Below the pieces are notes generated by a model. It was not told the origin of the DNA, searched no databases, and worked only from the letters and a program-made list of their open reading frames with translations. From an uncultured virus (IMG/VR IMGVR_UViG_3300034101_006118) (Duplodnaviria > Heunggongvirae > Uroviricota > Caudoviricetes), in IMG/VR virus record IMGVR_UViG_3300034101_006118: 57,878 bases of DNA; one strand, 5' to 3'. Made by a program: the position numbers and the translations under genes. Positions 3,058 through 55,538 of this stretch are shown here, one piece after another. Numbering within the stretch: position 1 is the stretch's first letter; the number at the start of each line of letters is the position of its first letter.

Positions 3058-3074
3058 CCGTCAATATTAGACGG
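3058..3074 (+). promoter_or_regulatory. conserved leader palindrome/hairpin copy 1 (CCGTCA-ATATT-AGACGG)
   Basis: 3 nt upstream of infC ATG; recurs in other leaders. Confidence 0.7.
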
Positions 3075-3077
3075 GAA

Positions 3078-3638
3078 ATGAATATGAATCAAAACAAGTT
3101 TACAAACGCAAATAATCGTCGTGAAGATCAAAACAGAGTGAACTGGCAGATAAGAGTGCCACAAGTTCGTGTTGTTCGTGACGAAGAACAACTCGGAATA
3201 ATGCCGACTGATCAAGCACGAAAATTAGCAATGGACGAAGGTTTGGATTTGGTGGAAATAGCTCCAACAGCCAAGCCTCCAGTTTGCAGAATTATGGATT
3301 ATGGTCGCTTCAAATATGAACAGAATATCAAGAAGAAGGAAGCTTCTAAAAAACAGCGTGAGTCGCAAGTTCAACTTAAGGAAATAAGGCTTCGCCCTGC
3401 AATTCAGGAACATGATATTGAAACAAAATTGAATCAAGCGAAAAAGTTTTTGGAAGAAAAATGTAAGGTTCAGTTCAATTTAATTTTCAAGGGATTCCGT
3501 GAGATGAACAATAAAGAGCAAGGCCACACGGTCATGCGGAAGATTGTTGAGCAAATTCAACAAGTAGCGATCATAGAGAAGTCACCTTCTATGGAAGGCA
3601 ATAGAATAATATGCATAGTGTCACCGAAGGTTTCTTGA
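3078..3638 (+). CDS. infC: translation initiation factor IF-3
   Basis: RVNxQIRxPQVRVV, GLDLVEIAPTAKPPVCRIMDYGRFKY, KEIRLRPxIxEHD; full two-domain IF-3. Confidence 0.96.
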   Translation: MNMNQNKFTNANNRREDQNRVNWQIRVPQVRVVRDEEQLGIMPTDQARKLAMDEGLDLVEIAPTAKPPVCRIMDYGRFKYEQNIKKKEASKKQRESQVQLKEIRLRPAIQEHDIETKLNQAKKFLEEKCKVQFNLIFKGFREMNNKEQGHTVMRKIVEQIQQVAIIEKSPSMEGNRIICIVSPKVS

Positions 3639-3659
3639 ATAAGGAATTAATTGTAATGT

Positions 3660-3676
3660 CCGTCATTTGTGGGCGG
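3660..3676 (+). promoter_or_regulatory. conserved leader hairpin copy 2 (CCGTCA-TTTGT-GGGCGG)
   Basis: 1 nt upstream of ATG at 3678; U-G pair on sense strand. Confidence 0.6.
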
Positions 3677-3677
3677 A

Positions 3678-4892
3678 ATGGACAATCATATGAGTAATGA
3701 TATTTTGTCAGAAAAGATAAACGACCTTCAGAATGAGTTCATTCGTCGTCTCCATGTCCATGGAAACGCTTCTTCGTCTAATCCTCCTCTTCTTCTGAGG
3801 TTGATACACGATTCTAGTCAAGATCTTCTTGAGTATGCATTTGGTCAATTTGGAACCAATCTTCTCCAATTGACAAAAGTTCTGGATATGAGCCATCCAG
3901 ACTTGGCTACTATTTTTGATGGTAATTTTTCAGACAATCAAAATTTCGCCAAAAAATGCATGCAATTTTTGGCCATGGCAGAATACGCTAAAAACAATCA
4001 ATTAAACGAGATATTTCCTTGGATTGGCAGCTTGTTTGTCAAAGAGTCTCTCGATAAAACCGTAATTAAAAAAATAGACAATGCAAATTACAATAAGTCT
4101 TATGTTAGATTGATATTGGACTCTGAGGAAAGAGAAGCAATTAGATTTTGCAAGAAAATGCAAATTATTGATTTGCAAAATTTTTATAAGAAGAGTGATG
4201 AATTATGGAATGCACAAACTGACAACTTCAAACAATTCATCAGGTATGATTCTGCTTATATGCGTGAGTTAAAACAAGCAGAAAAGAAAATGAAAAGGTA
4301 TCAGGAGTTAGGATGTCATAGTCTTGCTTCAGAGATAGCCAAGAGCATTGGAGTTTTCCGTGAAAACATGGAACAAACATATTATGGTTTCAACAGAATC
4401 ACAATGACCAATGCCGCAATTATTCTCGCAAAGTGTTTGGGTTACACATATAGCCCAGCATACCAGCTACATGCTGGTGGACATATTATGAGGATGGATG
4501 CACAAATTAAGGTTCCAAGGATTTTCTTCAAAAATTATTTTTTTGATCATTCCTTGGACTTGAATACCGTTTATGATTATGAGCCAAAGGTTTATCCTTT
4601 TCATGAAGTTGTTGACATTGCGCCAGAACAAGTAATGCAAACAATTAAGTTGTTGGAGAGTTTTCCAGAGGCAAACGACAAGCCTATTTTTGATCATTTT
4701 GGGGTTATTGTTCCATCAATATCTTACAAAAATCATATTTTCAAAAACGAATCAGGTTTGTTGCAGGATTGTGGTTCTCAAGAAGAGTGTTCTAAAGAAC
4801 TAGATAAAGTTTTCATTAAAAACAAGTATATTTATCCTATCATAATTGGAGAAAAAGACGGAAAGTGTTTCTTCATATGTTATTGGGCTTGA
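3678..4892 (+). CDS. hypothetical protein
   Basis: Long ORF (~400 aa); no motif recognised. Confidence 0.75.
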   Translation: MDNHMSNDILSEKINDLQNEFIRRLHVHGNASSSNPPLLLRLIHDSSQDLLEYAFGQFGTNLLQLTKVLDMSHPDLATIFDGNFSDNQNFAKKCMQFLAMAEYAKNNQLNEIFPWIGSLFVKESLDKTVIKKIDNANYNKSYVRLILDSEEREAIRFCKKMQIIDLQNFYKKSDELWNAQTDNFKQFIRYDSAYMRELKQAEKKMKRYQELGCHSLASEIAKSIGVFRENMEQTYYGFNRITMTNAAIILAKCLGYTYSPAYQLHAGGHIMRMDAQIKVPRIFFKNYFFDHSLDLNTVYDYEPKVYPFHEVVDIAPEQVMQTIKLLESFPEANDKPIFDHFGVIVPSISYKNHIFKNESGLLQDCGSQEECSKELDKVFIKNKYIYPIIIGEKDGKCFFICYWA

Positions 4893-4902
4893 GGTTTCTT
4901 TT

Positions 4903-5160
4903 ATGACATACAATCTTACTAGAGAAGAGTTGCTGGATTTTGCTAAAATCGTTTATGAACAATCAATTCATGGCTATCTTGACTTGAAAGATGGTGCCTG
5001 CGAAAGAATGCTTGTGAATTTTTTGTCTGACAAGAAAACTTTATTACCACATACTAATGTAACCATGAGCGCCATCGGCTCTGCTATAGCAAGTCAGACA
5101 TTCAATGCTGATATTTTCACTATTTCAGAGAGTTTTATCGGTGGCCAGAACTTAAATTAA
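4903..5160 (+). CDS. hypothetical protein
   Basis: GAGGT SD before ATG 4903. Confidence 0.6.
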   Translation: MTYNLTREELLDFAKIVYEQSIHGYLDLKDGACERMLVNFLSDKKTLLPHTNVTMSAIGSAIASQTFNADIFTISESFIGGQNLN

Positions 5161-5195
5161 ATTCATCATTAGATGATTTAACGGGAAAGGCAACA

Positions 5196-5558
5196 ATGTC
5201 AAAGAATAAGATTCTCACACCAGCGGGCACGGTTTTTAATTCAGCCGTACCTGTTCCAAAGATCAAGTCAGTGAAGCCTTGTGGCTCACAGGTTTTGATT
5301 GAGTTCCTCACGCAACAGGAAATGTTGGGCACAACTCTTGTTGTTAATGAAAAGATCGATTTGAAAGTTCCTCTTCAGGGATATGTTCGTGCAGTTGGTC
5401 CCAATTTCAAGCCTAGCGATTATGGATTCGATATTGGAGATAGAGTAACGGTTTCCGGCGCTGGAATTCATGTTCCTAATTGGGACGGGATAAATCGTGA
5501 TCGTTTCTTGATGGAGCCCACATCAGTCAAGGGCGTGATTGTCGAAGAAACAGTTTGA
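5196..5558 (+). CDS. GroES/Cpn10-like co-chaperonin
   Basis: VKPCGSQVLIE, QGYVRAVGP, GDRV, FLMEPxxVKGVI match the Cpn10 pattern; divergent. Confidence 0.7.
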   Translation: MSKNKILTPAGTVFNSAVPVPKIKSVKPCGSQVLIEFLTQQEMLGTTLVVNEKIDLKVPLQGYVRAVGPNFKPSDYGFDIGDRVTVSGAGIHVPNWDGINRDRFLMEPTSVKGVIVEETV

Positions 5559-5595
5559 ATCATTACTAATTGAAAATGGATGAAATACCCGATTA

Positions 5596-6663
5596 ATGAA
5601 AGACCCATATTCTGTTCTTGGCGTTGCAAAAAATGCCACTAAAGAAGAGATCGTAAAGGCTTATCGGAAAGGCGCTCAGACACATCATCCAGATCGCAAT
5701 CCCGGCGATAGTGAAGCTGAGGCCCGATTTAGGGAAATTCAAGAAGCATATGACATTCTAAGCGATGATTCTAAGAGATCCCAATATGATAGCAACGGAT
5801 TCTCCATGCACTTCCGAAATAGGGGAAGCGAAGGTAACCCCTTCGGCCCCGATTTCGGGGATGTAATGAATGAAATATTTGGCAAGAGTACATTCCGTGG
5901 CAGGAATATGACTGTCAGGTTAGAAATCGATCTTGAAGAAGCCTATAGCGGCTGTACCAAAGAGATTTCCCTGAAGCTTAAAAATACCTGCAATACTTGC
6001 AAGGGTTTGGGTCAATTAAGTAGTGAAGTTTGCGGTTCATGCCAAGGACAGGGATTCACGAAGGTTAACAATGCGCCATTTGAATTTAGAACAAATTGCC
6101 CAGTTTGTAATGGACTTGGTAAGATAAATCCAATTCCATGTGATGATTGCAATGCCAATGGATTTCTGGCTGGACACAAAGAAAAGAAAATCCAGATACA
6201 AATACCTTGCGGCATAGATGATGCGATGAATCTCAAGTTGGTTGGAGAAGGAGAAGAGTCTGTTCGTGGAGGAAGGCCGGGAGATCTTATTGTTCATGTC
6301 CTTGTTCGTGAACATGCTATTTTTACCAGAGATGGAATCGATCTTTTAATTGATGTGCCAATGACTTATTCACAGCTTGTATTCGGTTGTGATATTGATG
6401 TGGTAACTATCGGAAAAGAAGTTGTAACTGTTAAGATTCCAGAAGGAACTCAAAGTCACGCCAAGTTCAAAATACGAGGCAAGGGTATGATTATGCCGAA
6501 TGGAGTTTACGGTGATCTTTTCATTACTGTGAAAATAGAAATTCCCAAGAATATTTCTCTTGATTATAAAGAAAATATCAAAAAATTGATGCCTTTTGAA
6601 ATGAATAACTTGGGATTCAAGAGAGAACAATGGCTCAAAAATGTAAATAAAAACAGTAAATAA
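5596..6663 (+). CDS. dnaJ: molecular chaperone DnaJ (type I)
   Basis: J domain with HPD, four CxxCxGxG-type Zn repeats, C-terminal GDL motifs. Confidence 0.95.
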   Translation: MKDPYSVLGVAKNATKEEIVKAYRKGAQTHHPDRNPGDSEAEARFREIQEAYDILSDDSKRSQYDSNGFSMHFRNRGSEGNPFGPDFGDVMNEIFGKSTFRGRNMTVRLEIDLEEAYSGCTKEISLKLKNTCNTCKGLGQLSSEVCGSCQGQGFTKVNNAPFEFRTNCPVCNGLGKINPIPCDDCNANGFLAGHKEKKIQIQIPCGIDDAMNLKLVGEGEESVRGGRPGDLIVHVLVREHAIFTRDGIDLLIDVPMTYSQLVFGCDIDVVTIGKEVVTVKIPEGTQSHAKFKIRGKGMIMPNGVYGDLFITVKIEIPKNISLDYKENIKKLMPFEMNNLGFKREQWLKNVNKNSK

Positions 6664-6686
6664 AATACATCATAATTGGAGTTTTT

Positions 6687-6893
6687 ATGAACAATGCAAT
6701 GAACAACAAGTTTTTTTGGATAGTTGCTGGTTTGACAGGAGCCATGCTTGTCATAGGAATAGGCGGCAAGATTTTTGTGGACAAAGTTGCCGATGTTGTG
6801 ATTGATAAGCTCAAGAAAGATTATAGTCCATCTCCATATGGACCCGGAATCGATCCAGACAAGATTGATGTCAGTAAAATTAAGAAATTATAA
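6687..6893 (+). CDS. small membrane protein
   Basis: Single hydrophobic helix; GGAG SD. Confidence 0.65.
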   Translation: MNNAMNNKFFWIVAGLTGAMLVIGIGGKIFVDKVADVVIDKLKKDYSPSPYGPGIDPDKIDVSKIKKL

Positions 6894-6903
6894 TTCCTTT
6901 TTC

Positions 6904-7251
6904 TTACAGAACTTGGCAATTTGTGATTTGTGATGGGTAAGCGCCATTGTCGCTAGCAAGCCTCAACATCTTTACTGCCATTATTTTACCCACTTCTGGT
7001 TGTGGATTGATTCTCCTAAATTCACTATGCGTAAAATAAAGCTTAGTCCCGTCAGATAGCTGGACATAAATTGGGTTTCTTTTGAGTATTATCAAGCTTA
7101 TTTTTGATTTCTTTTCAGTTTCAGGCAAGTCGAGAGACATGTTGGGAAGAACGAATGATTTTGTCCAAGAAAAATTCTCCGAGACGCATATTGCTCCATA
7201 TCTTTCCAAACAATCCATCATATTCGTAAATTCTTTGAAATTGTTCTTCAT
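6904..7251 (-). CDS. hypothetical protein
   Basis: MKNNFKEF N-terminus; TAAATA upstream on minus strand (7259-7264). Confidence 0.65.
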   Translation of the reverse strand: MKNNFKEFTNMMDCLERYGAICVSENFSWTKSFVLPNMSLDLPETEKKSKISLIILKRNPIYVQLSDGTKLYFTHSEFRRINPQPEVGKIMAVKMLRLASDNGAYPSQITNCQVL

Positions 7252-7271
7252 GATTACTTATTTAGTTTTAC

Positions 7272-7574
7272 ATGAGCGGAAAATATAAAATAACATCTTC
7301 TTCCTTTATTTTGACCATGATGGTCGAGTTCCTTGATGAAAATGCTCAATCAAGGTCTTTGAGTGTTGGTGTTGATTACTCAATGAACAAAGTATTCTTT
7401 TTGGACAAGAGTGATCCAAAAATAGATTACGATTATCTTGAGAAAAAAATACTTGATAGCATGAAACCCGAGGATGTTCAGGTTCCTGAAATACCAACTG
7501 ATTTCATGTATAAGGCCGAACAAGTTCGCATGGGCAAATTCAACAATGAAACTTTTTTTGACAAGAAGGAATAA
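7272..7574 (+). CDS. hypothetical protein
   Basis: ORF tiling. Confidence 0.6.
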   Translation: MSGKYKITSSSFILTMMVEFLDENAQSRSLSVGVDYSMNKVFFLDKSDPKIDYDYLEKKILDSMKPEDVQVPEIPTDFMYKAEQVRMGKFNNETFFDKKE

Positions 7575-7576
7575 AA

Positions 7577-7918
7577 ATGCCAACTAATAATGCTGAAAGA
7601 GCAGGATTTTCTGTGTCTTTGAACAACGATGCTGAAAAAGTACCTTGCAAACTGAGAATCATGACCTTGGAGAGGGTCTACAAGATTATCGAAAGTAAGA
7701 ACTATGATGCCAAAGTGAGTTCCGAATTGAAAAAATCTGCCAGCAAGTACCCGCAGCAGGCATTAGAAAATTTTATGCAAAACTTCGATAAACATTTACT
7801 AAGAGCAAGAAAAGCAGTAAGATTAAGTAGCCCTACTGTTTCTCCGGTTGACGATTCAATAGAAACAAAAAACAAAGAAGAAGAGATCCCAAATGCCCCC
7901 CAAGAAACAGAATTCTAA
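7577..7918 (+). CDS. hypothetical protein
   Basis: AAGGA SD; ORF tiling. Confidence 0.65.
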   Translation: MPTNNAERAGFSVSLNNDAEKVPCKLRIMTLERVYKIIESKNYDAKVSSELKKSASKYPQQALENFMQNFDKHLLRARKAVRLSSPTVSPVDDSIETKNKEEEIPNAPQETEF

Positions 7919-8405
7919 TCTCACAAGTCACAACGGTCTTCTTGAAGGCAAGCTGCCAGTGAAGATAGTTGCTGATTCTCCTATGTTCATACCCAAATAT
8001 AAAACAAATGGCGCTGCTGCATGTGATTTAATTGCAAATATCACCACTAACGATGCAGGACACAATTTTGTTTCTATAATGCCAAATCAAGTGGAAACAA
8101 TTGATGTCGGTTTTAGTATGGAGTTGCCATTAGGTTGGGAAGCGCAGATCAGGGTCAGAAGCGGACTTGCTATACAAGGTTTGCAAGTTACCAACTCGCC
8201 CGGAACTATTGATTCAGATTACAGAGGCAGAATTAAAGTAATTGTCAACAGCACAAGTAAAAACATCATAAGAATTACTCATGGAGATAGATTCGCCCAA
8301 ATGCTGGTCAAACCAGTTTGGCAAATCGATTGGCAAGAAGTTAATGAACTTAGCGTCACTGATAGAAATAATGGTGGTTTTGGATCTACAGGAATAAAAT
8401 CATGA
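7893..8405 (+). CDS. dut: dUTP diphosphatase (trimeric dUTPase)
   Basis: AAACDL, RSGLA, NSPGTIDSDYRG, RFAQ, RxxGGFGSTG motifs 1-5. Confidence 0.95.
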   Translation: MPPKKQNSNLTSHNGLLEGKLPVKIVADSPMFIPKYKTNGAAACDLIANITTNDAGHNFVSIMPNQVETIDVGFSMELPLGWEAQIRVRSGLAIQGLQVTNSPGTIDSDYRGRIKVIVNSTSKNIIRITHGDRFAQMLVKPVWQIDWQEVNELSVTDRNNGGFGSTGIKS

Positions 8406-8611
8406 AAGTATTTGCAATTATCAGCATAGCCAGACAAGTCCAAGGTGAATATGTTGTCTGCAAGGTAGAAAAGGCATTCACTAGCTCTACAAAAGCTGGC
8501 GAATACGCTAATTCCTTGGCTAGACAATATGCAGAAACCATACAAACACCATCTGGTCCAATTCCATGTGTTTGTGAAAGAGGCGTATTTGAAATTGATG
8601 TAGTGGAATAA
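8402..8611 (+). CDS. hypothetical protein
   Basis: ATGA overlap with dut. Confidence 0.6.
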   Translation: MKVFAIISIARQVQGEYVVCKVEKAFTSSTKAGEYANSLARQYAETIQTPSGPIPCVCERGVFEIDVVE

Positions 8612-8623
8612 AGGAGCAAAAAA

Positions 8624-9352
8624 ATGAGTACACACAATCCTCTTGAAGGCGACCGTCCTGAAATGACAGTCAAACTTCACGAAAACAGCGATGATCATGT
8701 TTCAATTATTGTCGTCCACAAAGATAGACCAGAATATTTGAACATTTGCCTTCAATCAATTGCTGTCACATCATTCAACAACAACTATGAAATAATTGTT
8801 GTTGATAACGGAAGCGGCAAGGAAAGTCAGGAATTTCTTAAAGATATTGAAGGCGAAGTGAAAGTTGTCAGAAATGACAAAAATTTATATTGGAGCGCAG
8901 CTTGTAACAAGGGAGTTCAAGCTGCCGATAAGAACAGCAAGTATTTTATTTTCATTCATTGTGATGTCGTGATACTCAACCCTGCATGGATCGATCTATT
9001 GATCAATGTTTCCGAGGCTCAAGGCTCCGGTTTTGTTGGAATTGATACCCAATCCTATATGATGGGACAACAGAAGGTTGATTTTCTTCAGGACCATTTG
9101 ACTCTTATCACAAGAGAAGCTTGGAATGATATTGGCCCTTGGCCAGAATCTCTTCCTCAGATAGGAACAACTTTTATTCTGACAATTAGGGCTCAACAAA
9201 AGGGCCATAAACCGCAAATCATGAAAAATCCAATCATTCATCACTATAAGATTTTCAGCATGGATATTTCTGATTATGAAAGAATGACAGAACAAGCAAT
9301 GACAACTTTGCCAAAACTCATGACGGATGTTTATTCCAAGGCAGTTGGATGA
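8624..9352 (+). CDS. glycosyltransferase family 2
   Basis: VSIIVVH, YEIIVVDNGS, SAACNKG, FIHCDV. Confidence 0.85.
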   Translation: MSTHNPLEGDRPEMTVKLHENSDDHVSIIVVHKDRPEYLNICLQSIAVTSFNNNYEIIVVDNGSGKESQEFLKDIEGEVKVVRNDKNLYWSAACNKGVQAADKNSKYFIFIHCDVVILNPAWIDLLINVSEAQGSGFVGIDTQSYMMGQQKVDFLQDHLTLITREAWNDIGPWPESLPQIGTTFILTIRAQQKGHKPQIMKNPIIHHYKIFSMDISDYERMTEQAMTTLPKLMTDVYSKAVG

Positions 9353-16974: not shown

Positions 16975-16991
16975 TCGTCACTAGGTGACGC
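16975..16991 (+). promoter_or_regulatory. conserved leader hairpin copy 3 (TCGTCA-CTAGG-TGACGC)
   Basis: Directly abuts ATG 16992. Confidence 0.6.
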
Positions 16992-35552: not shown

Positions 35553-35569
35553 CCGTCAACTCCTGACGG
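35553..35569 (+). promoter_or_regulatory. conserved leader hairpin copy 4 (CCGTCA-ACTCC-TGACGG)
   Basis: Perfect palindrome, just upstream of GGAG SD. Confidence 0.75.
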
Positions 35570-35892: not shown

Positions 35893-36489
35893 GTGACTGT
35901 GTTTGCACATCGGAAAGTGCTTGTTCTCAATAAATCTTGGAGAGCCATTGGCATTATCACTCTTGAAAAGGCCATGGCAAAGATATTTTCTACTTATGAT
36001 GATGGAACACCAAAGGCGAAAATTATTGATCCTAGCAATAATTTCATGCTTTTTGAGTGGGAAGAATGGTCGATGATAAGACCATCTGAAGGCGAGTTGA
36101 AAATAAGGACAATTAACAACTCTTTTAGAGTTCCAGAGGTTATTCAGTATACCAAATACGATAAAATGCCTTCTACCAAGGCGCACTTCAATAGAAAGAG
36201 TTTGTATCGAAGAGACAGAAGTACATGTCAATATTGCGGCGAGAAAAAAATAGCCGAGCAGCTTTCATTGGATCATGTTTTGCCAAGATGTCAGGGAGGC
36301 ATGACTAATTGGGAAAACATTGTTGTTGCTTGCAAGGATTGCAATTCAAAGAAGGCTGGAAGAACTCCCAAGCAAGCTGGCATGAAATTATTGAAAGAAC
36401 CCAAAAGGCCATTGTCAAGTTTGTATCTTGATGAATTGCATATTGAATCATGGTCGCATTTCTTGAATTTTGATGACATTATTTCTTGA
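35893..36489 (+). CDS. HNH endonuclease
   Basis: VLVLNxSW, RDxxTCQYCG, DHVLP..GG..WENIVxACxxCNxxK. Confidence 0.9.
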   Translation: MTVFAHRKVLVLNKSWRAIGIITLEKAMAKIFSTYDDGTPKAKIIDPSNNFMLFEWEEWSMIRPSEGELKIRTINNSFRVPEVIQYTKYDKMPSTKAHFNRKSLYRRDRSTCQYCGEKKIAEQLSLDHVLPRCQGGMTNWENIVVACKDCNSKKAGRTPKQAGMKLLKEPKRPLSSLYLDELHIESWSHFLNFDDIIS

Positions 36490-36514
36490 TTTGATTTGCC
36501 GATCATGCTAAAAT
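36486..36514 (+). promoter_or_regulatory. sigma70-like promoter (extended -10)
   Basis: TTGATT-17bp-TAAAAT with TG extension. Confidence 0.55.
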
Positions 36515-36526: not shown

Positions 36527-36543
36527 CCGTCTTTTTCAGACGG
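36527..36543 (+). promoter_or_regulatory. conserved leader hairpin copy 5 (CCGTCT-TTTTC-AGACGG)
   Basis: Compensatory T-A pair; lies just after the promoter. Confidence 0.7.
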
Positions 36544-38512: not shown

Positions 38513-39844
38513 CTAAATTAGAGTAAAGTCAACAAATTCAATCTCCATGAATTCTCTAGGGAATTTAATTCCACTTGCATATTCTGAATTACTACTGCTA
38601 TTCCATTTTTCCTTAATCCTTTTAAGGATAACGGGATTGTGTGCGAAAAATAGTTCTACCTCCCTTGTCATGATTTTTTCATTTTGAATAGTAAGACCAG
38701 CAGCCTTGAAAAGCCTATGATAAGCTGTTAATGGGTCGAGAAGTCGGTTTGTTAAAGTAGGTTTGATTCCCATTCCAAAAAGCTCATCTTCGCTGAATAT
38801 CAAATGAAGAAAAGCTTTGTTGACTTGAAGATGTGTGTGGCATCCATGTCTGCTTGTCCAAGGATGGCATCTTATAAAAATCTTTCCTGTTGGGTTTTTT
38901 ACGGAAATTATTTTCTGGAATGATTTTTCAAATTCTTGTGCATGATCGATAATATCGTGAATGATAATCGCATCATATGGCCCTTCTTTCTCGATATCGC
39001 TCCATTTGTCTGAATAGATGAGTGATTTATCTTGGCAATATTTGCTCCAGTTATCACTTTTTTCAATGTCATATGACACAAATTTTTTGGTGTTGAATAA
39101 AGTTTTAGCAACATAGCCGACATGTCCTTCTTTGCATCCAAATTGAAGAACATTTTTTTCTAATAGATCAACTTTGACCAAAGTACTTAGAATTGCCGCT
39201 GCCTGATGCAGTTTTTCTTCTTCGTTGTCATGAACGATGTCTCCTTCTTCCATTGCTTCTGGCCAATGATCGCTTTTCATAAGGAACCGTAAATCTGTGA
39301 ATTCTTTGAGTGAGTCATTGCTTGTAATTGTGACTTCATTCACTAAGTTTTCCTGATCAAGGAATTTCTGCATGAATGCTTTGAGAGAGTCCAATGTTTG
39401 GATGAAGTGTTGAACATCTTTTATTTCACTTTCTGTGTAGTTTTTGTGTTGTTGGTTTACTTTTCTAGGTGCCATTTTCTTTTGAATTTGAGTTTGGTCT
39501 GGAAACATGAAGTTGGGGAATGGTGGTTGCATGGGAGGCATCCCTTGCATTTGTGGAGGATAAGGAGGCATTCCATGCATTTGTGGAGGATAAGGAGGCA
39601 TCCCTTGCATTTGTGGATGGAATGGAATTGGGAGGTTTTGAGGCGAGGCGGGTTGCCTTGATGCTAAATTTACCTTATCAGGAGAAGTTGCATTTTTTTG
39701 TGCTTCTTCTTTTTTTATCTTTTCCAATTCCTGCTTCATAAGTTCGTGTCTTTTCCTGAACTCACGGAATTCTTTGCCTACTTCTTCATTATTTTCGCTC
39801 ATGGTGAACTCTTTTATGGTTAGAAATTCGTCACTAAATGACAA
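38513..39844 (-). CDS. methyltransferase-domain protein with Pro/Gln/Met-rich linker
   Basis: VLQFGCxEG, SYDI, YDAIIxHDxxDH, GKIFIRCHPW; true start probably 39802. Confidence 0.7.
   Translation of the reverse strand: MSFSDEFLTIKEFTMSENNEEVGKEFREFRKRHELMKQELEKIKKEEAQKNATSPDKVNLASRQPASPQNLPIPFHPQMQGMPPYPPQMHGMPPYPPQMQGMPPMQPPFPNFMFPDQTQIQKKMAPRKVNQQHKNYTESEIKDVQHFIQTLDSLKAFMQKFLDQENLVNEVTITSNDSLKEFTDLRFLMKSDHWPEAMEEGDIVHDNEEEKLHQAAAILSTLVKVDLLEKNVLQFGCKEGHVGYVAKTLFNTKKFVSYDIEKSDNWSKYCQDKSLIYSDKWSDIEKEGPYDAIIIHDIIDHAQEFEKSFQKIISVKNPTGKIFIRCHPWTSRHGCHTHLQVNKAFLHLIFSEDELFGMGIKPTLTNRLLDPLTAYHRLFKAAGLTIQNEKIMTREVELFFAHNPVILKRIKEKWNSSSNSEYASGIKFPREFMEIEFVDFTLI
39534..39617 (-). repeat. 30-bp coding tandem repeat (~2.8 copies) encoding PQMxGMPPYP
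   Basis: Read directly on + strand: GGAGGCATYCCWTGCATTTGTGGAGGATAA units. Confidence 0.9.
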
Positions 39845-43370: not shown

Positions 43371-43387
43371 CCATCATCGTGTGATGG
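43371..43387 (+). promoter_or_regulatory. conserved leader hairpin copy 6 (CCATCA-TCGTG-TGATGG)
   Basis: Compensatory A-T pair replaces G-C. Confidence 0.6.
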
Positions 43388-43497: not shown

Positions 43498-44763
43498 ATG
43501 TCTACCAATATGATCAATTCAAGAAGCTCGTCAAAGGATGATGGGCTAAAGATGATGCAAATGCCGAATGGCACTAAGCATCTGACTGGGAATCTCTACA
43601 TGATTCCATTTGCCAGCATTCGTTCTCCGCAAAACAATCCTCGTCTCTTGACTGAACAGGGCAGGAATGACCTTCTTGATAGGGAGCTTTCGAGTCAGCT
43701 TCGTGATTCGATTCGTCGTAACACCTTGCTTAATCCGCTTGTTTGTCGATGGGTTATCGAGGATGGCAAAGCCATCCCAACAATAGTAGGTGGTGATCGT
43801 CGTCATCGGGCCTTGGATGTTCTTATTAGGCAGAAGGTTGAGGTCGTTGACCCTCGCAGCCCTCGACATAGCGATAACGGGCATTTTGTCAATTCTTCGG
43901 TAACAACAGCCGATCTTGCTTACGAATTTGTGCCATGCCAAGTTTTTATTTGTAACGATGACATTGATGCACTCACTTTAGCATGGGCAGAAAATAAGAA
44001 CAGGATTAACTTAACTGATGGCCATGAGATAGCCCAAGTTATCCAGCTTCGTGAGAATGGGGCTACAGATTCTCAGATAGTTGATATTCTCCAGCGCAAC
44101 CAAAAATGGCTTGCCGATACTGACAGGTTGATTGCTTCTCTTGATTCTCACACCTTGACCGACTTGCTTGAAGGCCGTCTGGAAAGGACCGCTGCTGTTG
44201 AATTGGCCGCAATTGAAGATCTTGCTGTTCGTGACAGCGTAAGGCTTGAGGCAAACGAACAGGCAGTAGCATCTTGGTCGAAGAAGATTAATCGTTTGAG
44301 GAACAAGGTTGATGCTGCCAATGCCAATATTGAGAGAGCAGAAGGCAGAATGGTGCTTGCCATGGACGATGAGGAAGTCGAAGAGGCAAGGGAGGAGCTT
44401 GCAGTAGCACAGGCAAATTCCCGTGATGCTCGAAGAGAAATGTCTGAGAACGAAAATCCAGTTACAACAACTGGTAATATTAGGACTGCATCAAGATCAC
44501 AAACAGGATCAGTTCCAACTACTGGAAACAAGCGTGGACCAAAGGGCGGTTCAAGGAAGATGAGGGAATCTAAGATTCAGGAGGGTCTTGAGTTCTTCGT
44601 GAATCTGGTGAAATCTAAAGGTCTTCCTCCTGATGCCTCTTTCACAGCAGATGTAAACGCCATTAAACTTGTGGCCAACATTTTCCGTGATAATATTATC
44701 GGCAACAATCCTGATTGGATGGGAACCCTGAGACGGTTCTACTCAGATCGTGATTCAAAATGA
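43498..44763 (+). CDS. ParB/Srx-like N-terminal domain protein with coiled coil
   Basis: NPR, LxxSI..LLNPL, GDRRxRA, AENxxRxNL, HTH-like segment; GGGAGG SD. Confidence 0.75.
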   Translation: MSTNMINSRSSSKDDGLKMMQMPNGTKHLTGNLYMIPFASIRSPQNNPRLLTEQGRNDLLDRELSSQLRDSIRRNTLLNPLVCRWVIEDGKAIPTIVGGDRRHRALDVLIRQKVEVVDPRSPRHSDNGHFVNSSVTTADLAYEFVPCQVFICNDDIDALTLAWAENKNRINLTDGHEIAQVIQLRENGATDSQIVDILQRNQKWLADTDRLIASLDSHTLTDLLEGRLERTAAVELAAIEDLAVRDSVRLEANEQAVASWSKKINRLRNKVDAANANIERAEGRMVLAMDDEEVEEAREELAVAQANSRDARREMSENENPVTTTGNIRTASRSQTGSVPTTGNKRGPKGGSRKMRESKIQEGLEFFVNLVKSKGLPPDASFTADVNAIKLVANIFRDNIIGNNPDWMGTLRRFYSDRDSK

Positions 44764-45159: not shown

Positions 45160-45414
45160 TTAGTTATCTGCCAATTGATCATCTGAGTCTGTAATGGCAG
45201 ATATCTGTCCTTTTGGGGCACGGCTATCGATTTCAACCGAATTGGATGCTGATGCCAATTCAGATCGAAGAACCATGACCTTTTTGGGGGCTTCGATACC
45301 AATCCTTACCTTATTACGATTATCGATTCTTACAATTGTTAGGGTTATGGGTTCCTCAAGACCGGGAACCCGAACGATTATTTGCTCATCCTTTTTGCGA
45401 CTTAGTACCAACAT
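45160..45414 (-). CDS. csrA: carbon storage regulator CsrA
   Basis: MLVLSRK, KVRIGIEAP..VxRxEL; AAGGA SD. Confidence 0.9.
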   Translation of the reverse strand: MLVLSRKKDEQIIVRVPGLEEPITLTIVRIDNRNKVRIGIEAPKKVMVLRSELASASNSVEIDSRAPKGQISAITDSDDQLADN

Positions 45415-45437: not shown

Positions 45438-45450
45438 CCGTATATGACGG
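45438..45450 (-). promoter_or_regulatory. shortened leader hairpin variant (CCGTCATATACGG) upstream of csrA
   Basis: Contains CCGTCA half-site; 4-bp stem only. Confidence 0.45.
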
Positions 45451-45593
45451 TTTTCTAAGTTAAGTTAGTTTTGTTTCATAGAAATTTTTCACTTCTGGCA
45501 AAAAAAAACGATTTTGGTATTTACAACCAAAAGTAATCAAATTACAAATGAGTTAATGGCACGAAATAAACCTTTCTATTGTTTGGAAGGTAG

Positions 45594-49311: not shown

Positions 49312-49336
49312 TTAAAATTTACGGAAATTAATTAAA

Positions 49337-50844: not shown

Positions 50845-51286
50845 TTTCATCGGCATTCTTGTGTCTAATCGCTTTGCCGCCCATTTCTTTCCATTCTTTG
50901 ATATTAATGTCAAGATCATCAATTAAAATGTTGTTTTCGCAGGAGTATTTCTTTTTCTTATCACTATGAGAAACGCACAATATTCTTGATGATGGGATGC
51001 CAAGATTGTTTTTGCACCATATTTTTTTACCTCTGGCAGCAGCACGATATCCAGAACAAGATGTTAGGATAAATGGATTGTATTTTTTGATATGGTCCCA
51101 TAAAGTCGTGCAATCTTCTGTTCTAGGTAGATTTGCCCAGAAATCACAGTTTTCCTTTTCGCTAAGACTTTCCATGTGTTCGTAAAATTTGATACTGAAA
51201 ATTGGCAAAATGTCATATCCGTATAAATCATTCATATGTTTTTGTAAATCAACTAAAACTCCATCTAAGTCGCAAAAAATAACCAT
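50810..51286 (-). CDS. HAD-family 5'(3')-deoxyribonucleotidase-like protein
   Basis: FCDLDGVLVD, ILTS, GKxxW, LIDD..NIxEW..GG. Confidence 0.85.
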   Translation of the reverse strand: MVIFCDLDGVLVDLQKHMNDLYGYDILPIFSIKFYEHMESLSEKENCDFWANLPRTEDCTTLWDHIKKYNPFILTSCSGYRAAARGKKIWCKNNLGIPSSRILCVSHSDKKKKYSCENNILIDDLDINIKEWKEMGGKAIRHKNADETIVELSKIFQQ

Positions 51287-51399
51287 GTGTTTTTCCCTCG
51301 TTGCTCAATATTAACTTAAAACTGTTTGAAATGCTAGTTTACTATTTTTTCAAAACGCTGTATATTGAACCCACTAGATGACAGAAACGCCATGATGGC

Positions 51400-51687
51400 A
51401 TGAGGAATCAGATGAAAAATCTTATGGGAAAAAACCAAACCTTGCAGCTATACAAGGTGATAGCATCTTATGATAAAGATATAGACGATTGGTTTGTCGA
51501 AAGATTAGAAGCTACAGATACTTTTTTTGAAATCAAAGTTCCTAGCCAAGAGGAAATTTGCAAAAAAGTTGGAGTGAATAGGAAAAGGCACATAGCATTA
51601 GTTAGTAAGAATGATGTTTTCATTTGTGAAAAGTCAACCAATCGTCCAGTGGCATACATGAAAAAGGCAACCAAAGTTGATGATTAG
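51400..51687 (+). CDS. hypothetical protein
   Basis: ORF tiling. Confidence 0.6.
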   Translation: MRNQMKNLMGKNQTLQLYKVIASYDKDIDDWFVERLEATDTFFEIKVPSQEEICKKVGVNRKRHIALVSKNDVFICEKSTNRPVAYMKKATKVDD

Positions 51688-51694
51688 CCGGGAT

Positions 51695-51991
51695 TCACGG
51701 ATTAGTTTTATTTTCTTGCACTAATTCAAGAACCTTTGGCTTTTGGCCGATATATGTTTCATAACATTGAATGGCTTTTGTGCCATACAGAGTAAATGTA
51801 TCTCCATATTTTAACGGTTTGTTCCAGTATGGAATAATAACTTGGACGCTTTTAAGTCCAAGTATTATATTTTCCATGCTGTTTGGCAATGTCTGACTTG
51901 CAAGTTCAACAGGATCAATTGGATTGACCCTGAATGTGTACTTGGGTTCTAACTTCATGTTTTTTGGTTTGCCCACGATTTCTCCTTTCAA
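51695..51991 (-). CDS. small protein homologous to C-terminal domain of 30278..31312
   Basis: TFR..ENII..LK..P.W..LKxGDTFTLxG shared. Confidence 0.7.
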   Translation of the reverse strand: MKGEIVGKPKNMKLEPKYTFRVNPIDPVELASQTLPNSMENIILGLKSVQVIIPYWNKPLKYGDTFTLYGTKAIQCYETYIGQKPKVLELVQENKTNP

Positions 51992-52020
51992 TATTTAAGT
52001 TAAAAAAATCAAATATTGAT

Positions 52021-52049
52021 TTGACATGATCAATTTATGGAAATATTCT
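52021..52049 (+). promoter_or_regulatory. sigma70-like promoter
   Basis: TTGACA-17bp-TATTCT. Confidence 0.6.
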
Positions 52050-52059
52050 TAATATAAAT

Positions 52060-52076
52060 CTGTCATCAAATGACGG
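52060..52076 (+). promoter_or_regulatory. conserved leader hairpin copy 7 (CTGTCA-TCAAA-TGACGG)
   Basis: U-G pair on sense strand; between promoter and GGAGG SD. Confidence 0.7.
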
Positions 52077-52103
52077 ATATTCGTTTAAGAATCGGAGGTC
52101 GAT

Positions 52104-53018
52104 ATGAGCGAGAAAAAGACTGATTCAGTAATTAAATTTTTTTCTGATGAAAATTCTTTCTCAAATCTAAAAATGAGGGTAGCTATACTTGGAAAGATGC
52201 CTGATTTTGTTTCTTTTCAAAAAGGCATTCAAAAAATTGAAAAGATCAAGATGGAAAAGATAAATCCTGAAATGATGCCTTGTTACAAATCTCCTCTTTT
52301 GACTAAGGAACAAGAGGTTCATTTATTCAGAAAGTTTAATTATCTCAAATATAAAGCCAATAGTCTTTATGGAATTGAAAAAGAATCCAAATTCTTTGAT
52401 GTAAAGAAGAAATTAGCGGATCACATCTATAAAAAAGCCATCCAAACCAGAAACTTGATTGCTGAAAGTAATTTCAGGCTGGCTACTCAAATCATGAAAC
52501 ACAAGAAGGGCAATCAAGACTCCAACACAGAATCCGTATTGAGCGATGCTTACTGGGATGTACTCAAAGCGGTAGAATATTTCAACTGGACATTGGGACT
52601 CAGATTCAGCACTTATGCTACATGGGTAGTTAAGAAGAACTATTTTAGAGAAGCCAAGAACAAACAGACCAACTCGGAAAAGTTGACATTTCTTGATGAT
52701 TCAAGAGCCGAAAATATTGAAGATCGAAATGGAATTAGTTCAGAAGAAAAAAATCAAGAAGCTAGGCAATATATGGTCAATAAGCTTATAAACTTATTGA
52801 TTAAAGAAAATATAGGAACAGATAGGGCTAGGCAAGCTTATGTGCTTGAAAACTACTTTGGTGTCAACGGAAGAAAAAAGCTCACCCTTGAGCAGATTAG
52901 CGCACAGATTGGCGTAACAAAAGAAAGAGTGCGTCAATTGAAGGAAAAAGGATTGCAGTGGATAAGGCAAAAGGTAAACGATCTTAATCTTAACATGGAA
53001 GATGCTAGTTACTTTTGA
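52104..53018 (+). CDS. RNA polymerase sigma-70 family factor (RpoD/RpoS-like)
   Basis: PLLTxEQEVHLFRKFNYLKYKA, ESNFRL, GLRFSTYATW, TLEQI..GVTKERVRQ. Confidence 0.92.
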   Translation: MSEKKTDSVIKFFSDENSFSNLKMRVAILGKMPDFVSFQKGIQKIEKIKMEKINPEMMPCYKSPLLTKEQEVHLFRKFNYLKYKANSLYGIEKESKFFDVKKKLADHIYKKAIQTRNLIAESNFRLATQIMKHKKGNQDSNTESVLSDAYWDVLKAVEYFNWTLGLRFSTYATWVVKKNYFREAKNKQTNSEKLTFLDDSRAENIEDRNGISSEEKNQEARQYMVNKLINLLIKENIGTDRARQAYVLENYFGVNGRKKLTLEQISAQIGVTKERVRQLKEKGLQWIRQKVNDLNLNMEDASYF

Positions 53019-53716
53019 AAAACAACATCCAAAAACTTGATGTTATAATTCTTTCTTATACGAAAGATTTGTGTTACTATGGAATAACACAAAGATGCAT
53101 ATCATCTTTGTTTAGAAATAATATAAATTTATCATTGAATGTTATAGTTGTAGAAACAAATAGTAATTTAGAAAATGAATATTTGTTTTATAACGGATGT
53201 AAGGTTGTTTTACCTTGCGAAGAATTTAATTACAATAAATTTATGAATATAGGACTTCAATATTGTAATTCAGAATTTGTTATGATGTGTAATAATGATT
53301 TGATATTTGGACACAATTCGGCAGAAAACCTTTTACAAACTATGATAAGCAATGACATGAAAAGCGCATGTCCTCTTGAGCCAAACTGGCATAAAACAAA
53401 ACTGAGCGAAGTGGAATATCAGTCGCCAATTTTGGAAGGATATGAGGTTGAAAAACATATTGTTGGTTGGTGTATTTGCGCTGATAGAAAGATGTTGTGT
53501 GATAATCAAATTTTGGATGAAAAGTTTTCTTTTTGGTATCAAGATAATGATTATGCCAATACATTGAAGAAATTAAACATAAAGCACTTTCTTGTAAAAT
53601 CCAGTCATGTCTATCATGAATTTAGCATTTCGCACAAACTACTAGGAAACAGAGCGCACGAATTAACACATGGCTTAAAAAGCGTTTACGAAGAAAAGTG
53701 GCAAGGCAACTATTGA
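53015..53716 (+). CDS. glycosyltransferase family 2
   Basis: DVIILS, FNYNKFMNxG, CNNDL, LDExFxFWYQDND, VYH. Confidence 0.82.
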   Translation: MKNNIQKLDVIILSYTKDLCYYGITQRCISSLFRNNINLSLNVIVVETNSNLENEYLFYNGCKVVLPCEEFNYNKFMNIGLQYCNSEFVMMCNNDLIFGHNSAENLLQTMISNDMKSACPLEPNWHKTKLSEVEYQSPILEGYEVEKHIVGWCICADRKMLCDNQILDEKFSFWYQDNDYANTLKKLNIKHFLVKSSHVYHEFSISHKLLGNRAHELTHGLKSVYEEKWQGNY

Positions 53717-53755
53717 CAATTTATTTTGAAATGAGACAATGAGTTTCTAGTAGTT

Positions 53756-54334
53756 TTGTTGAATATGCAAGGAAGTAATATGTTACAAGATGGACTTTCT
53801 GCTTGTAAATCATGGAAGGGCAAAGCCCTTCTTGTTAACGATTTTTATCAGTCTAGGAGAATTGATAGTTCACTTGAGCCAATGTGGATTCATGGAGCAT
53901 ATGAAATTGTTAAAAATTATATTGATGATACTTTGCAAAAGGATCAAATTAAATTTTTCTATGATATCATTAGAAGTCATGAGTTGCCTGATGGATTTGA
54001 AGTCCCATCCATGCCCAATGTTCCAAGTAGCCCAATTAGGATTATGCACGAAGGCTGGAAGATAGGTAGTCCAACTTGGATATTTATGGGTCGTAACCAA
54101 CCGGGAGCAGCAGTCCATGTTAATGGAGATTGGATCGCAGTAAAAAGAACAATTCCTGCCGAAATGTACAAATTTTTCGATCCTCAACTCCCAGATTCTA
54201 TTTGGATGGCTTACAGCACTAAAAATCAAATGGCGAGTATGAATTCTTCTCAAGATGATGGTGGAATAGGTCCGGCCATGGATTTTGAAGACCTAGTTGA
54301 AGCAATTGAAAAGAAGATTGCACAGAAAGTTTGA
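53756..54334 (+). CDS. hypothetical protein
   Basis: Long ORF after TTGACA (53713) promoter-like element. Confidence 0.65.
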   Translation: MLNMQGSNMLQDGLSACKSWKGKALLVNDFYQSRRIDSSLEPMWIHGAYEIVKNYIDDTLQKDQIKFFYDIIRSHELPDGFEVPSMPNVPSSPIRIMHEGWKIGSPTWIFMGRNQPGAAVHVNGDWIAVKRTIPAEMYKFFDPQLPDSIWMAYSTKNQMASMNSSQDDGGIGPAMDFEDLVEAIEKKIAQKV

Positions 54335-54375
54335 TTTTAGAAATCATTAAAATTAGGATTATTCTTATCAAAATG

Positions 54376-54405
54376 ATAAGCCCCTTGTTGAAAAAAGGGG
54401 CTTAT
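54376..54405. terminator. bidirectional terminator-like hairpin
   Basis: ATAAGCCCCTT / AAGGGGCTTAT between convergent genes. Confidence 0.75.
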
Positions 54406-54429
54406 TTGAATTTTTACTTATATGTAAGA

Positions 54430-55506
54430 TCAATCAAGGTTTGTAATAATACCATCTGTTGCGCCAACAATTGCCTTCAATGTTAATGCGTTTGTGGTGT
54501 CTTTGATAGCTCTAACAGATCCGTCACACATGACTGCATTAGCAACGCCACTGTGGAAACTAAAAGGTTCATCGTTAGGACCACAGTTGTTTACGCTCCA
54601 AGGACAGCTAGAAGGACCGCCAATTGGTGTTTGATTATTGTTAATTCTAGCCGTTTTATCAGAAGTGCTATTACTCGGACCAGACAAGCCGTTTCCGCTC
54701 GCATCGGGGTCAGCCCACGCATAAACACGACGAGCAGTTGTTAGGCTTAAATCACCAATTACGGGATGACCGGGAGCAGATACAGGTGAACTTCTTGCAG
54801 AACCAGCACCGAACATAGTCATTGTTGGATGCGCTCTACCAGCATCTTCAATTACAAGCAAAGTATTGCTTGTTCCATCTAAAATACTTGTAATAGTAGA
54901 TCCTTGAGCAGTTAAAGGTCCATAATATTTTCCTTTATAGCTAGCAGAACCAGTTCCAGATACTCTTGAATTTGTGCCTTCATCAATATCGCTAACACAA
55001 GCAACCATATAGTCAATAACACCAAGATTTTCACCATTTGATCGAGCAGTAGATCCAAGTGGTGTAGAAGGACAAACAAATGTCTTTACTTGTGTTTGAG
55101 AGGCAGTCCAACCGCTAGGATAAGCTGGATCATCATAATCTCTTCCTTTTGCCAATGCGTGTAAAAGCGTTGTGTTGTATCCAGTCCAGTTTGTGTTCGT
55201 GTGATCAAACATTTTATATGTTGATTCTTGTTCGATGTAAGGAAGAATTTGCGTACACCAAGAATGAATCATATAAGTAGTAGTATTAGATCCAGTGCTA
55301 TCAATTTGACCGGGATGAGGCAACTTGCTATATCCTGATTCAAATGCGTGAAATCCTAGACCAATTTGTTTCAAGTTGTTAGTGCAACTCATGCGATTAG
55401 CTGCTTCACGAACCTTTTGTACTGCTGGGACAAGAAGTCCGATAAGCACAGCAATGATGGCAATAACAACTAACAATTCAATCAATGTAAAACCCTTGCG
55501 CTTCAT
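54430..55506 (-). CDS. DUF1559 prepilin-type N-terminal cleavage/methylation protein with H-X9-DG motif
   Basis: KRKG/FTLIELLVVIAIIAVLIGLLVPAVQKVREAA..CxNNLKQIGL, ILPYIEQ, DGTSNT, SFHSGVANAVMCDGSV. Confidence 0.95.
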   Translation of the reverse strand: MKRKGFTLIELLVVIAIIAVLIGLLVPAVQKVREAANRMSCTNNLKQIGLGFHAFESGYSKLPHPGQIDSTGSNTTTYMIHSWCTQILPYIEQESTYKMFDHTNTNWTGYNTTLLHALAKGRDYDDPAYPSGWTASQTQVKTFVCPSTPLGSTARSNGENLGVIDYMVACVSDIDEGTNSRVSGTGSASYKGKYYGPLTAQGSTITSILDGTSNTLLVIEDAGRAHPTMTMFGAGSARSSPVSAPGHPVIGDLSLTTARRVYAWADPDASGNGLSGPSNSTSDKTARINNNQTPIGGPSSCPWSVNNCGPNDEPFSFHSGVANAVMCDGSVRAIKDTTNALTLKAIVGATDGIITNLD

Positions 55507-55521
55507 TTTCTATTTCTCCTC

Positions 55522-55538
55522 CCGCCATATAATGACGG
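55522..55538 (-). promoter_or_regulatory. conserved leader hairpin copy 8 (CCGTCA-TTATA-TGGCGG)
   Basis: U-G pair only on the sense (minus) strand; abuts GAGGAG SD. Confidence 0.7.

Follow-up and report, generated by a model that had tools for sequence, protein, structure and literature searches.

Type V-I (Cas12i) CRISPR systems are reported to be encoded by huge phages (PMC7162821). In the case of Cas12i2, the mature repeat is 23 nucleotides (nt) long and comprises a 6-nt tail and a stem-loop; A(-23), G(-22) and A(-21) are required for processing of the CRISPR RNA (crRNA), and residue K537 reads G(-15) as well as U(-14) on the major-groove side (PMC7567891). The 3' end of the repeat is retained in the mature crRNA as its 5' handle, which Cas12i grips. 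Here we describe a family of palindromes of the form CCGTCA-N5-TGACGG in a 57,878-nt stretch of DNA (the window; 36% G+C) from an uncultured virus of the Caudoviricetes (IMG/VR record IMGVR_UViG_3300034101_006118). The palindromes are best read as RNA hairpins which some 14 genes of a huge freshwater phage carry in their transcribed 5' leaders, and the hairpins as solitary and diverged copies of a type V-I CRISPR repeat's 3' end. We lean, with modest confidence, towards the view that these handle-derived hairpins are docking sites for a Cas12i-family protein, which would be loaded onto the 5' ends of messenger RNAs (mRNAs) and would control them.

Among phage translational operators, the targets of T4 RegA and the MS2 coat-protein hairpin offer a functional comparison. 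As with these, many early mRNAs would be bound by a phage protein on or beside the start codon; the difference is that a CRISPR effector is proposed as the binder and a hairpin derived from a repeat as its site. RNA anti-CRISPRs (Racr), or solitary repeat units, are repeat-like hairpins in viral non-coding DNA; they lie just after promoters and their transcript can be shared with a protein gene (Camara-Wilpert et al. 2023, PMC10651486). The units described here are likewise solitary and placed in leaders, with promoter-like sites 10-15 nt before three of them and 22 nt before a fourth. Racr are single units which mimic a host system (PMC10651486), whereas here about 14 truncated copies per 128 kb abut translation starts, and they occur in a phage clade which itself encodes the cognate effector. 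The window units would fail the thresholds given for SRUFinder (at least 50% repeat coverage and a bit score of 41.1), and the main text of PMC10651486 does not contain the words V-I or Cas12. The crRNA-like RNAs of the CreA/CreR type and the mini-arrays (Shmakov et al. 2023, 10.1101/2023.03.03.530964) are likewise CRISPR repeats exapted for regulation. They guide the effector to a partly complementary promoter adjacent to a protospacer-adjacent motif (PAM), whereas the 30 nt following each of our units match only their own locus; types I and V-A are named in that preprint, in which neither 'V-I' nor 'Cas12i' appears. The known repeat-derived RNAs are therefore decoys (Racr) or guides for transcriptional control near cas genes. 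What differs here is the presence of many truncated handles across a phage genome, each fused to the translation start of an unrelated gene, in a clade whose members encode the cognate Cas12i, one form of which lacks two RuvC catalytic residues and has no array beside it. Our literature search returned no dispersed Cas12i handles in phage leaders and no natural RuvC-defective Cas12i, although supplements outside that search, eg the Supplementary Data of PMC10651486, may hold V-I solitary units.

An initial annotation, made from the sequence of the window, had placed the palindrome at 3058, 3660, 16975, 35553, 36527, 43371, 52060 and 55522, and all eight positions carry the motif. With up to two mismatches allowed, CCGTCA-N5-TGACGG was found 11 times in the window, compared to 0.54 expected from 100 dinucleotide-preserving shuffles (largest value 3), and the perfect motif once, compared to 0.00. 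A copy on the minus strand at 39828-39844 was absent from the initial list. The count was extended to a composite of 128,533 bases of one phage, composed of the window and two overlapping viral records, G001, an approximately 99%-identical strain variant with a few indels, and G003, which is identical over window 51480-57878 and continues for 65 kb more. The composite represents about 29% of a genome estimated at approximately 440 kb. It contains 16 matches at the same stringency, 12 of them 5' of genes. With 10.1% of the composite non-coding, as judged by a crude caller of open reading frames (ORFs), the binomial probability of this leader placement is 1.4e-9; one of the 12, unit 35553, lies inside a TTG-extended ORF yet upstream of its ATG. 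The dispersed leader element which the annotation had described is confirmed, and the motif is enriched over shuffled sequence and in leaders. The window has 50 generic hairpins with a 6-bp stem and a 5-nt loop, a number which is not out of the ordinary, and most of them are AT-rich; the signal is therefore specific to the CCGTCA/TGACGG stem. A de novo search for recurrent hairpin families gave only the CCGTC family as standing out in the phage, and none in G002, its closest relative (68% amino-acid identity, syntenic with window 1-18.7 kb).

Fourteen units were accepted, with coordinates beyond the window given as window-equivalents. Those on the plus strand begin at 3058, 3660, 16975, 35553, 36527, 52060, 82159 and 92001 (a variant with an 8-bp stem) and those on the minus strand at 39828, 45438 (the csrA variant), 55522, 67891 and 74024, while the strand of unit 43371 is ambiguous. 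Matches within coding sequence at 1121, 8653, 43528 and 93649 were excluded, as was a degenerate copy at -307 whose first 13 bases are those of unit 82159. From unit 3058 to unit 92001, in order of position, the distances from hairpin to start codon are 3, 1, 0, 13, 26, 25, 110 (51 on the other strand), 23, 27, 15, 22, 20, 24 and 18 nt; three copies abut the start codon. The genes which follow are a mixed group: initiation factor IF3, a sigma factor, CsrA, a ParB-like protein, an amidoligase, a methyltransferase, a SNF2 helicase, a pilin-like DUF1559 protein and proteins of unknown function.

Twelve units were aligned in the orientation of the downstream gene for the analysis of pairing. In this alignment 91.7% of cells pair, compared to 31-49% when the partners are slid by one to three columns, and both sides are changed in four of the seven pairs, a figure attained in 1 of 500 shuffles. 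No break occurs in pairs 2-5, and mismatches are confined to the outermost or innermost pair. The compensatory copies (CCGTCT/AGACGG at 36527, CCATCA/TGATGG at 43371) and the three U-G copies (3660, 52060 and, on the minus strand, 55522) are as first described. The loop, which had been called free in sequence, is less so than was thought, since its positions 1 and 5 pair in five of the 12 units to give a 7-bp stem with a triloop. Strand assignment rests on the gene alone for five units (3660, 52060, 55522, 67891 and 74024), and all transitions in these give G-U in the sense strand and C-A in the other; unit 39828, whose strand was chosen partly by pairing and which also has a plus-strand gene after it, is a sixth case in agreement. 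Two members alter the distance between the arms, by +4 in the variant with an 8-bp stem (L028:522-542; CCGTCCTT-GTTTG-AAGGACGG, then directly AAGGAGAG) and by -4 in the csrA variant, and the stem base is kept in both. Predicted RNA energies are -4.6 to -7.3 kcal/mol for the units, -12.7 for the 8-bp form and -2.7 for the csrA form; a true CRISPR handle gives -5.2.

The initial annotation had named a dimeric DNA operator as the alternative. On this reading a dimer of a phage transcription factor would bind the 6-N5-6 palindrome in the promoter or closely behind it. Conserved half-sites, a free spacer and overlap with positions +1 to +20 of promoter-like sites are indeed classic operator features. 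A dimeric DNA-binding protein, however, would not tolerate the changes of +4 and -4 in arm distance, which a hairpin does. The symmetric double changes in four pairs, the asymmetry of G-U and C-A which follows the strand of the gene, and the homology of the element to an RNA handle (below) also speak against an operator, which we regard as highly improbable. As far as can be predicted from sequence, the palindrome behaves as a sense-strand RNA hairpin. The annotation's proposal of a hairpin on the transcribed strand is borne out in its signature by pairing and covariation, and promoter-like sites do lie just upstream of some copies, as it had stated. In a search of 26 kb of leaders that admitted E values up to 5, no Rfam family matched any of the units, which answers a check that the annotation had called for, and the Cas12i repeat itself has no Rfam match either. 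A promoter of the extracytoplasmic-function type, with CGTC as its -10 element, was considered and dropped, as no common -35 element could be seen by eye. A split ribosome-binding site, with the Shine-Dalgarno sequence upstream of the hairpin, was looked for in the three units which abut start codons and found in none.

A covariance model made from the 12 units (R1) gave 13 distinct sites of at least 20 bits in 149 kb of the phage, ie the 12 units and one site in G001, and nothing at that score in the 270 kb of relatives first examined. Run on the whole records of five relatives, it returned a regular series in G004 which is a CRISPR array. The array has 13 copies of a 36-nt repeat ending in AGAAAT-CCGTC-CTACGTT-GACGG, with 12 unique spacers of 19-41 nt, and starts about 130 nt after the end of a gene whose 1080-amino-acid (aa) product matches Cas12i2 (PDB 6LTP, E 1e-101) and Cas12i1 (E 9e-66). 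This type V-I locus occupies L112:1418-2297 and L119:14639-17881; it is preceded by genes for PrkA and DUF444 and an intein-containing SpoVR gene, and followed by those for a CxxCxxCC protein and a PHP/DnaE fragment. The same handle recurs in the arrays of three more Cas12i loci, found in metagenomes, and its three central loop bases vary even within a single array. The 12 spacers of G004 had no match in the sequence examined, and the 55 spacers of four arrays gave matches of only 14-18 nt in 1.8 Mb.

A second model (R2) was made from 11 distinct array handles only. It scored the infC unit (3052-3074) at 24.8 bits (E 0.008), the sole significant unit among the 14; the best control match was 16.2 bits in 270 kb. 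Like the 5' handle of Cas12i crRNA, the units have a stem base of CCGUC/GACGG, a 17-nt span and, in about half of them, an A-rich tail ending in U; unlike the handle, which lies in an array before a spacer, they are solitary and lie before a ribosome-binding site. The stem base with its 17-nt span is exact in four of the 12 units, and the other eight have one to three changes, all of them wobble, compensatory or in the outermost pair. The AGAAAU tail is complete at infC and reads AGAAAA at csrA, AAAU alone is present in four more units, and the rest differ. The most invariant columns of the units, G3 and T4, correspond to the G(-15) and U(-14) read by Cas12i2. What links the units to the handle is the shared stem base with its span, the presence of the AAAU tail in roughly half of them, the infC unit and orthologous positions (below). 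Given this homology to the 3' handle of the type V-I repeats of related huge phages, the element is not the undescribed one that had been suggested, and its nearest known kind is the solitary repeat unit. Some other candidates were discarded. A search of viral contigs with an exact double pattern for an array carrying the window-type hairpin gave one match, a coding tandem repeat in an unrelated high-GC contig, and two R1 matches in G002 and one R2 match in G009 were terminator-like hairpins or coding sequence.

Solitary handles were found in the relatives as well. R2, run on G004 and G006 (252 kb), recovered all 13 repeats of the array at 38-41 bits as well as 11 solitary handles at 17-36 bits. 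All nine of the solitary handles inspected keep an (A/G)GAAAT tail, and seven of the nine lie 0-35 nt before the next ATG; those at G004:145202 and G006:44970 adjoin only an ORF of 20-24 aa, with the ParB-like start further downstream. G004 accordingly carries at least seven solitary handles together with its own active-looking Cas12i and an array with the same handle. At the orthologues of three genes the window phage has an upstream unit in common with relatives: ORF 36570 (G004 and G006), the amidoligase (G004) and the ParB-like gene (G006). Those at infC, ORF 3678, ORF 35583, the sigma gene, csrA and two further genes are confined to the window lineage. At such sites the leaders are 16-18 nt longer than those of relatives, 3' of a promoter which is conserved by eye in most of them. 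Neither the sigma leader nor the infC leader has a unit in G002, G004 or G006, and in the other relatives inspected at the sigma gene the leader is likewise without one. In G009, which has a Cas12i and a 16-repeat array, the handle stem is GUGUC/GACAC, two compensatory pair changes away from CCGUC/GACGG. The G009 record also has a degenerate, internally deleted repeat about 44 nt before the start of cas12i itself (L149:4680-4720, minus strand), which resembles the standalone repeats of 10.1101/2023.03.03.530964. The csrA leader of G004 contains a hairpin, GTGTC-AGAG-GACAC, with the same stem as the G009 array handle.

The closest relative, G002, encodes a Cas12i homologue of 1011 aa (E 2e-86 to Cas12i2; L123:1513-4548, equivalent to G002:16381-19416). 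Its gene is followed by a terminator and then by the same neighbours as those after the G004 array, and no CRISPR array was found anywhere in the 57.7 kb of G002. Aligned to Cas12i2, with the roles of the RuvC catalytic residues taken from the literature on that enzyme, the protein shows D599N and E833T and keeps the third catalytic Asp; equivalents of K18 and H485/H486 (processing) and of K537 (handle reading) are also kept. Two further homologues (66% and 56% identity) share the RuvC substitutions. Across the substituted set (the G002 protein, P0122 and P0123), Asn occurs at D599 and Thr or Val at E833, with the His-His, Lys and K537 equivalents conserved, and this is a conserved clade of probably nuclease-dead proteins. 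The Cas12i of G004, P0124 and L141 keep D, E and D, and that of G009 keeps the first and third catalytic Asp, the only two compared. A metagenome scan gave seven Cas12i loci, all at 38-42% identity to the G002 protein. Protein scans for the phage's own cas12i, with the G002 protein and P0122 as queries, returned only G002 and a 7.6-kb fragment, and a tblastn search of GenBank phages with P0122 returned no Cas12i homologue.

In 13 of the 14 units a ribosome-binding site and start codon lie within 0-27 nt of the hairpin, where the spacer would sit in a crRNA, so that a bound protein would cover the translation start. We infer that transcripts include the units, that these are bound in the window phage by a protein of the Cas12i family and that such binding has a regulatory effect, the outcome of which would be control of the translation or stability of the messages for IF3, the sigma factor, CsrA, the ParB-like protein, the SNF2 helicase and others. 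The distance from the end of a promoter-like site to the unit is 10 nt for 52060, 12 nt for 36527 and 15 nt for 43371 (the last on the minus strand). These distances, which are no more than suggestive, would place most hairpins at about +4 to +9 of the mRNA, giving an RNA that starts like a mature crRNA. The infC unit, farther from its promoter, keeps the AGA tail, as does the csrA unit; these few cases give no more than a hint. Guide function on a second site is unsupported, as the 30 nt after each of the 14 hairpins match only their own locus in 128 kb (seeds of 9-12 nt) and have no TTN PAM: bases of the CGG type occupy the PAM position at that locus, and two chance matches of 12 of 20 positions lack TTN before them. 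If the proposed binding is real, it would be a natural instance of a class 2 effector which acts in cis on mRNA, and the units would be natural handle variants showing what Cas12i tolerates. A broader proposal, that a freshwater lineage of huge phages has exapted Cas12i, including the RuvC-defective form without an array, as a post-transcriptional regulator, with the crRNA handle as a cis-acting leader operator for about 14 mRNAs including those of IF3, the sigma factor and CsrA, is put forward as a tentative and somewhat doubtful one.

A number of observations weigh against docking by Cas12i. Promoter-like matches overall (77, compared to 67.9 in shuffles) are no more frequent than expected, so the promoter positions are only suggestive, and intergenic regions in this phage are short, which makes proximity to a start codon weak evidence. 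Of the five G-U cases, four are the identical A14-to-G change and may not be independent. With R2, the csrA, DUF1559, ORF 35583 (opposite strand) and 74024 units scored 9.5-12.5 bits and the remaining units were unreported. The array handles have 5 bp, an apical C-G pair, a UU bulge and a 3-nt loop (CNNNGUU), a combination not found in the window units, whose stem of 6-7 bp runs uninterrupted up to a free loop; of these units, only those of infC and csrA have the AGA tail on which processing depends. These apical differences, together with the mostly missing AGA tail, account for the R2 scores of 12.5 bits or below, or none, in 13 of the 14 units. The bulge and loop bases are also read by Cas12i2 (PMC7567891). 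Neither a cas12i gene nor a CRISPR array was found in the 128 kb of the window phage, ie about 29% of its estimated genome. Finally, no units were found in the 57.7 kb of G002, including the leaders of the infC, ORF 3678 and amidoligase orthologues.

Several of these observations suit a different explanation, in which the hairpins are Racr-like decoys which mimic the handle and soak up the Cas12i of competing huge phages in the same cell. Copies in many leaders would then give a high dose from the first minutes of infection. Active Cas12i does appear to be encoded by related lake phages, whose arrays number 6 to 28 repeats in the stretches examined, and a pattern scan of bacterial and archaeal species genomes gave no Cas12i relative, so that the cognate enzyme is probably phage-borne. 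The absence of cas12i from the 128 kb also fits. Processing is reported to be important for DNA cleavage (PMC7567891) and the AGA tail is mostly missing, so complexes formed on the window units could be unproductive. Decoys are harder to reconcile with G004, where at least seven solitary handles are found alongside an active-looking Cas12i and an array with the same handle; a decoy there would disable the phage's own enzyme. Units are also kept at orthologous genes over 55-60% amino-acid divergence, and a generic decoy needs no fixed positions. None of the 55 spacers matches the examined sequence of the phage, a weak point, since only 1.8 Mb was searched. The decoy explanation remains a serious rival, weakened by the coexistence of enzyme and units in G004 and by orthologous retention, and we consider it rather unlikely. 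If it were correct, RNA anti-CRISPRs would be extended to type V-I and to conflict of phage against phage.

A further possibility is that the descendants of the handle now work independently of Cas proteins, as 5' stem-loops which stabilise or insulate the mRNA or which are read by another protein, eg CsrA or IF3. The tail, bulge and loop specific for Cas12i have decayed in the window units while the stem was kept, three units would lie at about +4 to +9 from promoter-like sites, and unrelated hairpins occupy the same place in relatives (the cas12i and amidoligase leaders of G002 and the csrA leader of G004). A structural hairpin, however, needs no conserved sequence, yet CCGTC/GACGG is present in nearly all copies, and the positions read by Cas12i2, G3 and T4, are the most invariant. 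A CsrA/RsmA site is expected to have GGA in the loop of a short hairpin. None of the 12 loops contains GGA, and GGA follows the hairpin in only five of the 12 units; the link to CsrA suggested in the initial annotation is unsupported. Taken as a whole, we think a Cas-independent role improbable, and docking of a Cas12i-family protein is the preferred reading.

The infC unit (3052..3074, plus strand) is the most handle-like, a 23-nt form with an AGAAAT tail, a 5-bp stem CCGTC/GACGG and a 7-nt loop, and the ATG of the IF3 gene is 3 nt further on. A sigma70-like promoter match, TTGACA-17-TACATT (3001..3029, plus strand), ends 22 nt before its tail, and inspection by eye shows a -35 element of the TTGAC type upstream of infC in G002, G004 and G006 as well. 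The unit of ORF 3678 (3660..3676, plus strand) has a U4-G14 wobble and an A6/G12 mismatch, with the ATG 1 nt on; the ORF encodes 404 aa and belongs to no Pfam family. In the amidoligase unit (16975..16991, plus strand) the outermost pair is lost and the ATG is immediately 3'; the G004 orthologue also has a unit. The perfect copy (35553..35569, plus strand) precedes ORF 35583 (75 aa), with a GGAGAG Shine-Dalgarno sequence and then an ATG 13 nt from the unit. Directly after it, at window 35570-35590, is a 6-codon mini-ORF (ATG GAG AGT AAA AAT GAA TGA) whose stop overlaps the ATG of ORF 35583. The unit of ORF 36570 (36527..36543, plus strand) has the compensatory change A6T/T12A, and orthologous units occur in G004 and G006; it begins 12 nt after the -10 element of a sigma70-like promoter sequence, TTGATT-17-TAAAAT (36486..36514, plus strand).

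On the minus strand, the methyltransferase unit (39828..39844; TTGTCATTTAGTGACGA) has a U1-A17 double change and a U2-G16 wobble and lies 25 nt before the start at 39802. The unit at 43371..43387, of ambiguous strand, carries the compensatory change G3A/C15T and stands between two divergent genes, 110 nt upstream of the ParB-like gene (plus strand) and 51 nt upstream of the MscL gene (minus strand), with the end of a promoter-like site of the minus strand 15 nt ahead of it. The short variant annotated before csrA at 45438-45450 is present, with its orientation now refined: csrA (45160..45414, 84 aa, Pfam CsrA E 6.1e-15) is on the minus strand, and the variant (45438..45456, minus strand; AGAAAA-CCGT-CATAT-ACGG) is a 4-bp stem CCGT/ACGG with a 5-nt loop, 23 nt upstream of the ATG. 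The sigma-factor unit (52060..52076, plus strand) has a U2-G16 wobble, with the ATG 27 nt on. It begins 10 nt after the -10 element of a sigma70-like promoter match, TTGACA-17-TATTCT (52021..52049, plus strand), which is conserved in relatives that lack a unit there. The unit of the DUF1559/N-methyl pilin-like gene (55522..55538, minus strand) has U4-G14 on that strand and abuts a GAGGAG Shine-Dalgarno sequence, with the ATG 15 nt on; gene and unit together (window 54319-55615) are missing from the 99%-identical variant G001. Beyond the window, unit 67891 has no obvious promoter of its own, as a hairpin resembling a terminator (ACTGTGGCGA...TCGCCACAG, then a run of T; L026:16436-16475, minus strand, window-equivalent approximately 67915-67950) ends 7 nt before it. 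Record G003 (L027:10520-10669 and L029:8271-8392) has four copies of a 47-63-nt element containing CTGCTTCGGA(A/T)TCCGAAGAAGCAAAGCCGA, two of which lie directly upstream of unit 82159, before the SNF2 helicase gene; the element had no Rfam match in L003.

Three of the matches excluded from the unit set lie in the window. That at 1121..1137, within coding sequence, has two mismatches which break outer pairs and is probably not a member; that at 8653..8669, within a glycosyltransferase gene, is probably a coding coincidence and is also present in G004 and G006 without the AAAT tail; and that at 43528..43544, within the ParB-like gene, is probably due to chance. The comparison of population variants (contigs of four DNA runs, over 35550-55545) gave 167 differences, and none of the 40 listed falls inside a unit, although at approximately 0.8% divergence about one difference in the units is expected, so this comparison says little; a variant at 36526 lies just 5' of unit 36527.

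The sequence is present in lake-water and freshwater metagenome runs from 15 studies, and no RNA runs are listed among the 24 runs carrying it. No near-identical record for window 1-20000 was found among GenBank phages. The viral records which overlap the window, of 57-80 kb, have completeness ratings of 13-18%, and the gene content (IF3, DnaJ, a ClpX-like protein, PhoH, two sigma factors, many glycosyltransferases, CsrA and the DUF1559 pilin-like protein) fits a fragment of a huge phage. G001 is also replaced or absent at window 12950-13990 and 31308-33762. The sole match in the window with Rfam or ARAGORN is a transfer RNA gene, tRNA-Arg(TCT), at 28377-28452. A tandem 15-nt coding repeat, GATTCTAAGAAACC[C/T], occupies window 929-1077 within ORF 755-1150, and similar low-complexity repeats rich in Lys and Asp occur in G002 (L032:706-939). 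The two genes of the sigma-70 family lie at 18087-18629 and 52104-53018. The 304-aa sigma factor has 338 homologues (E up to 1e-5), on contigs of up to 673 kb, which points to a large clade of huge phages.

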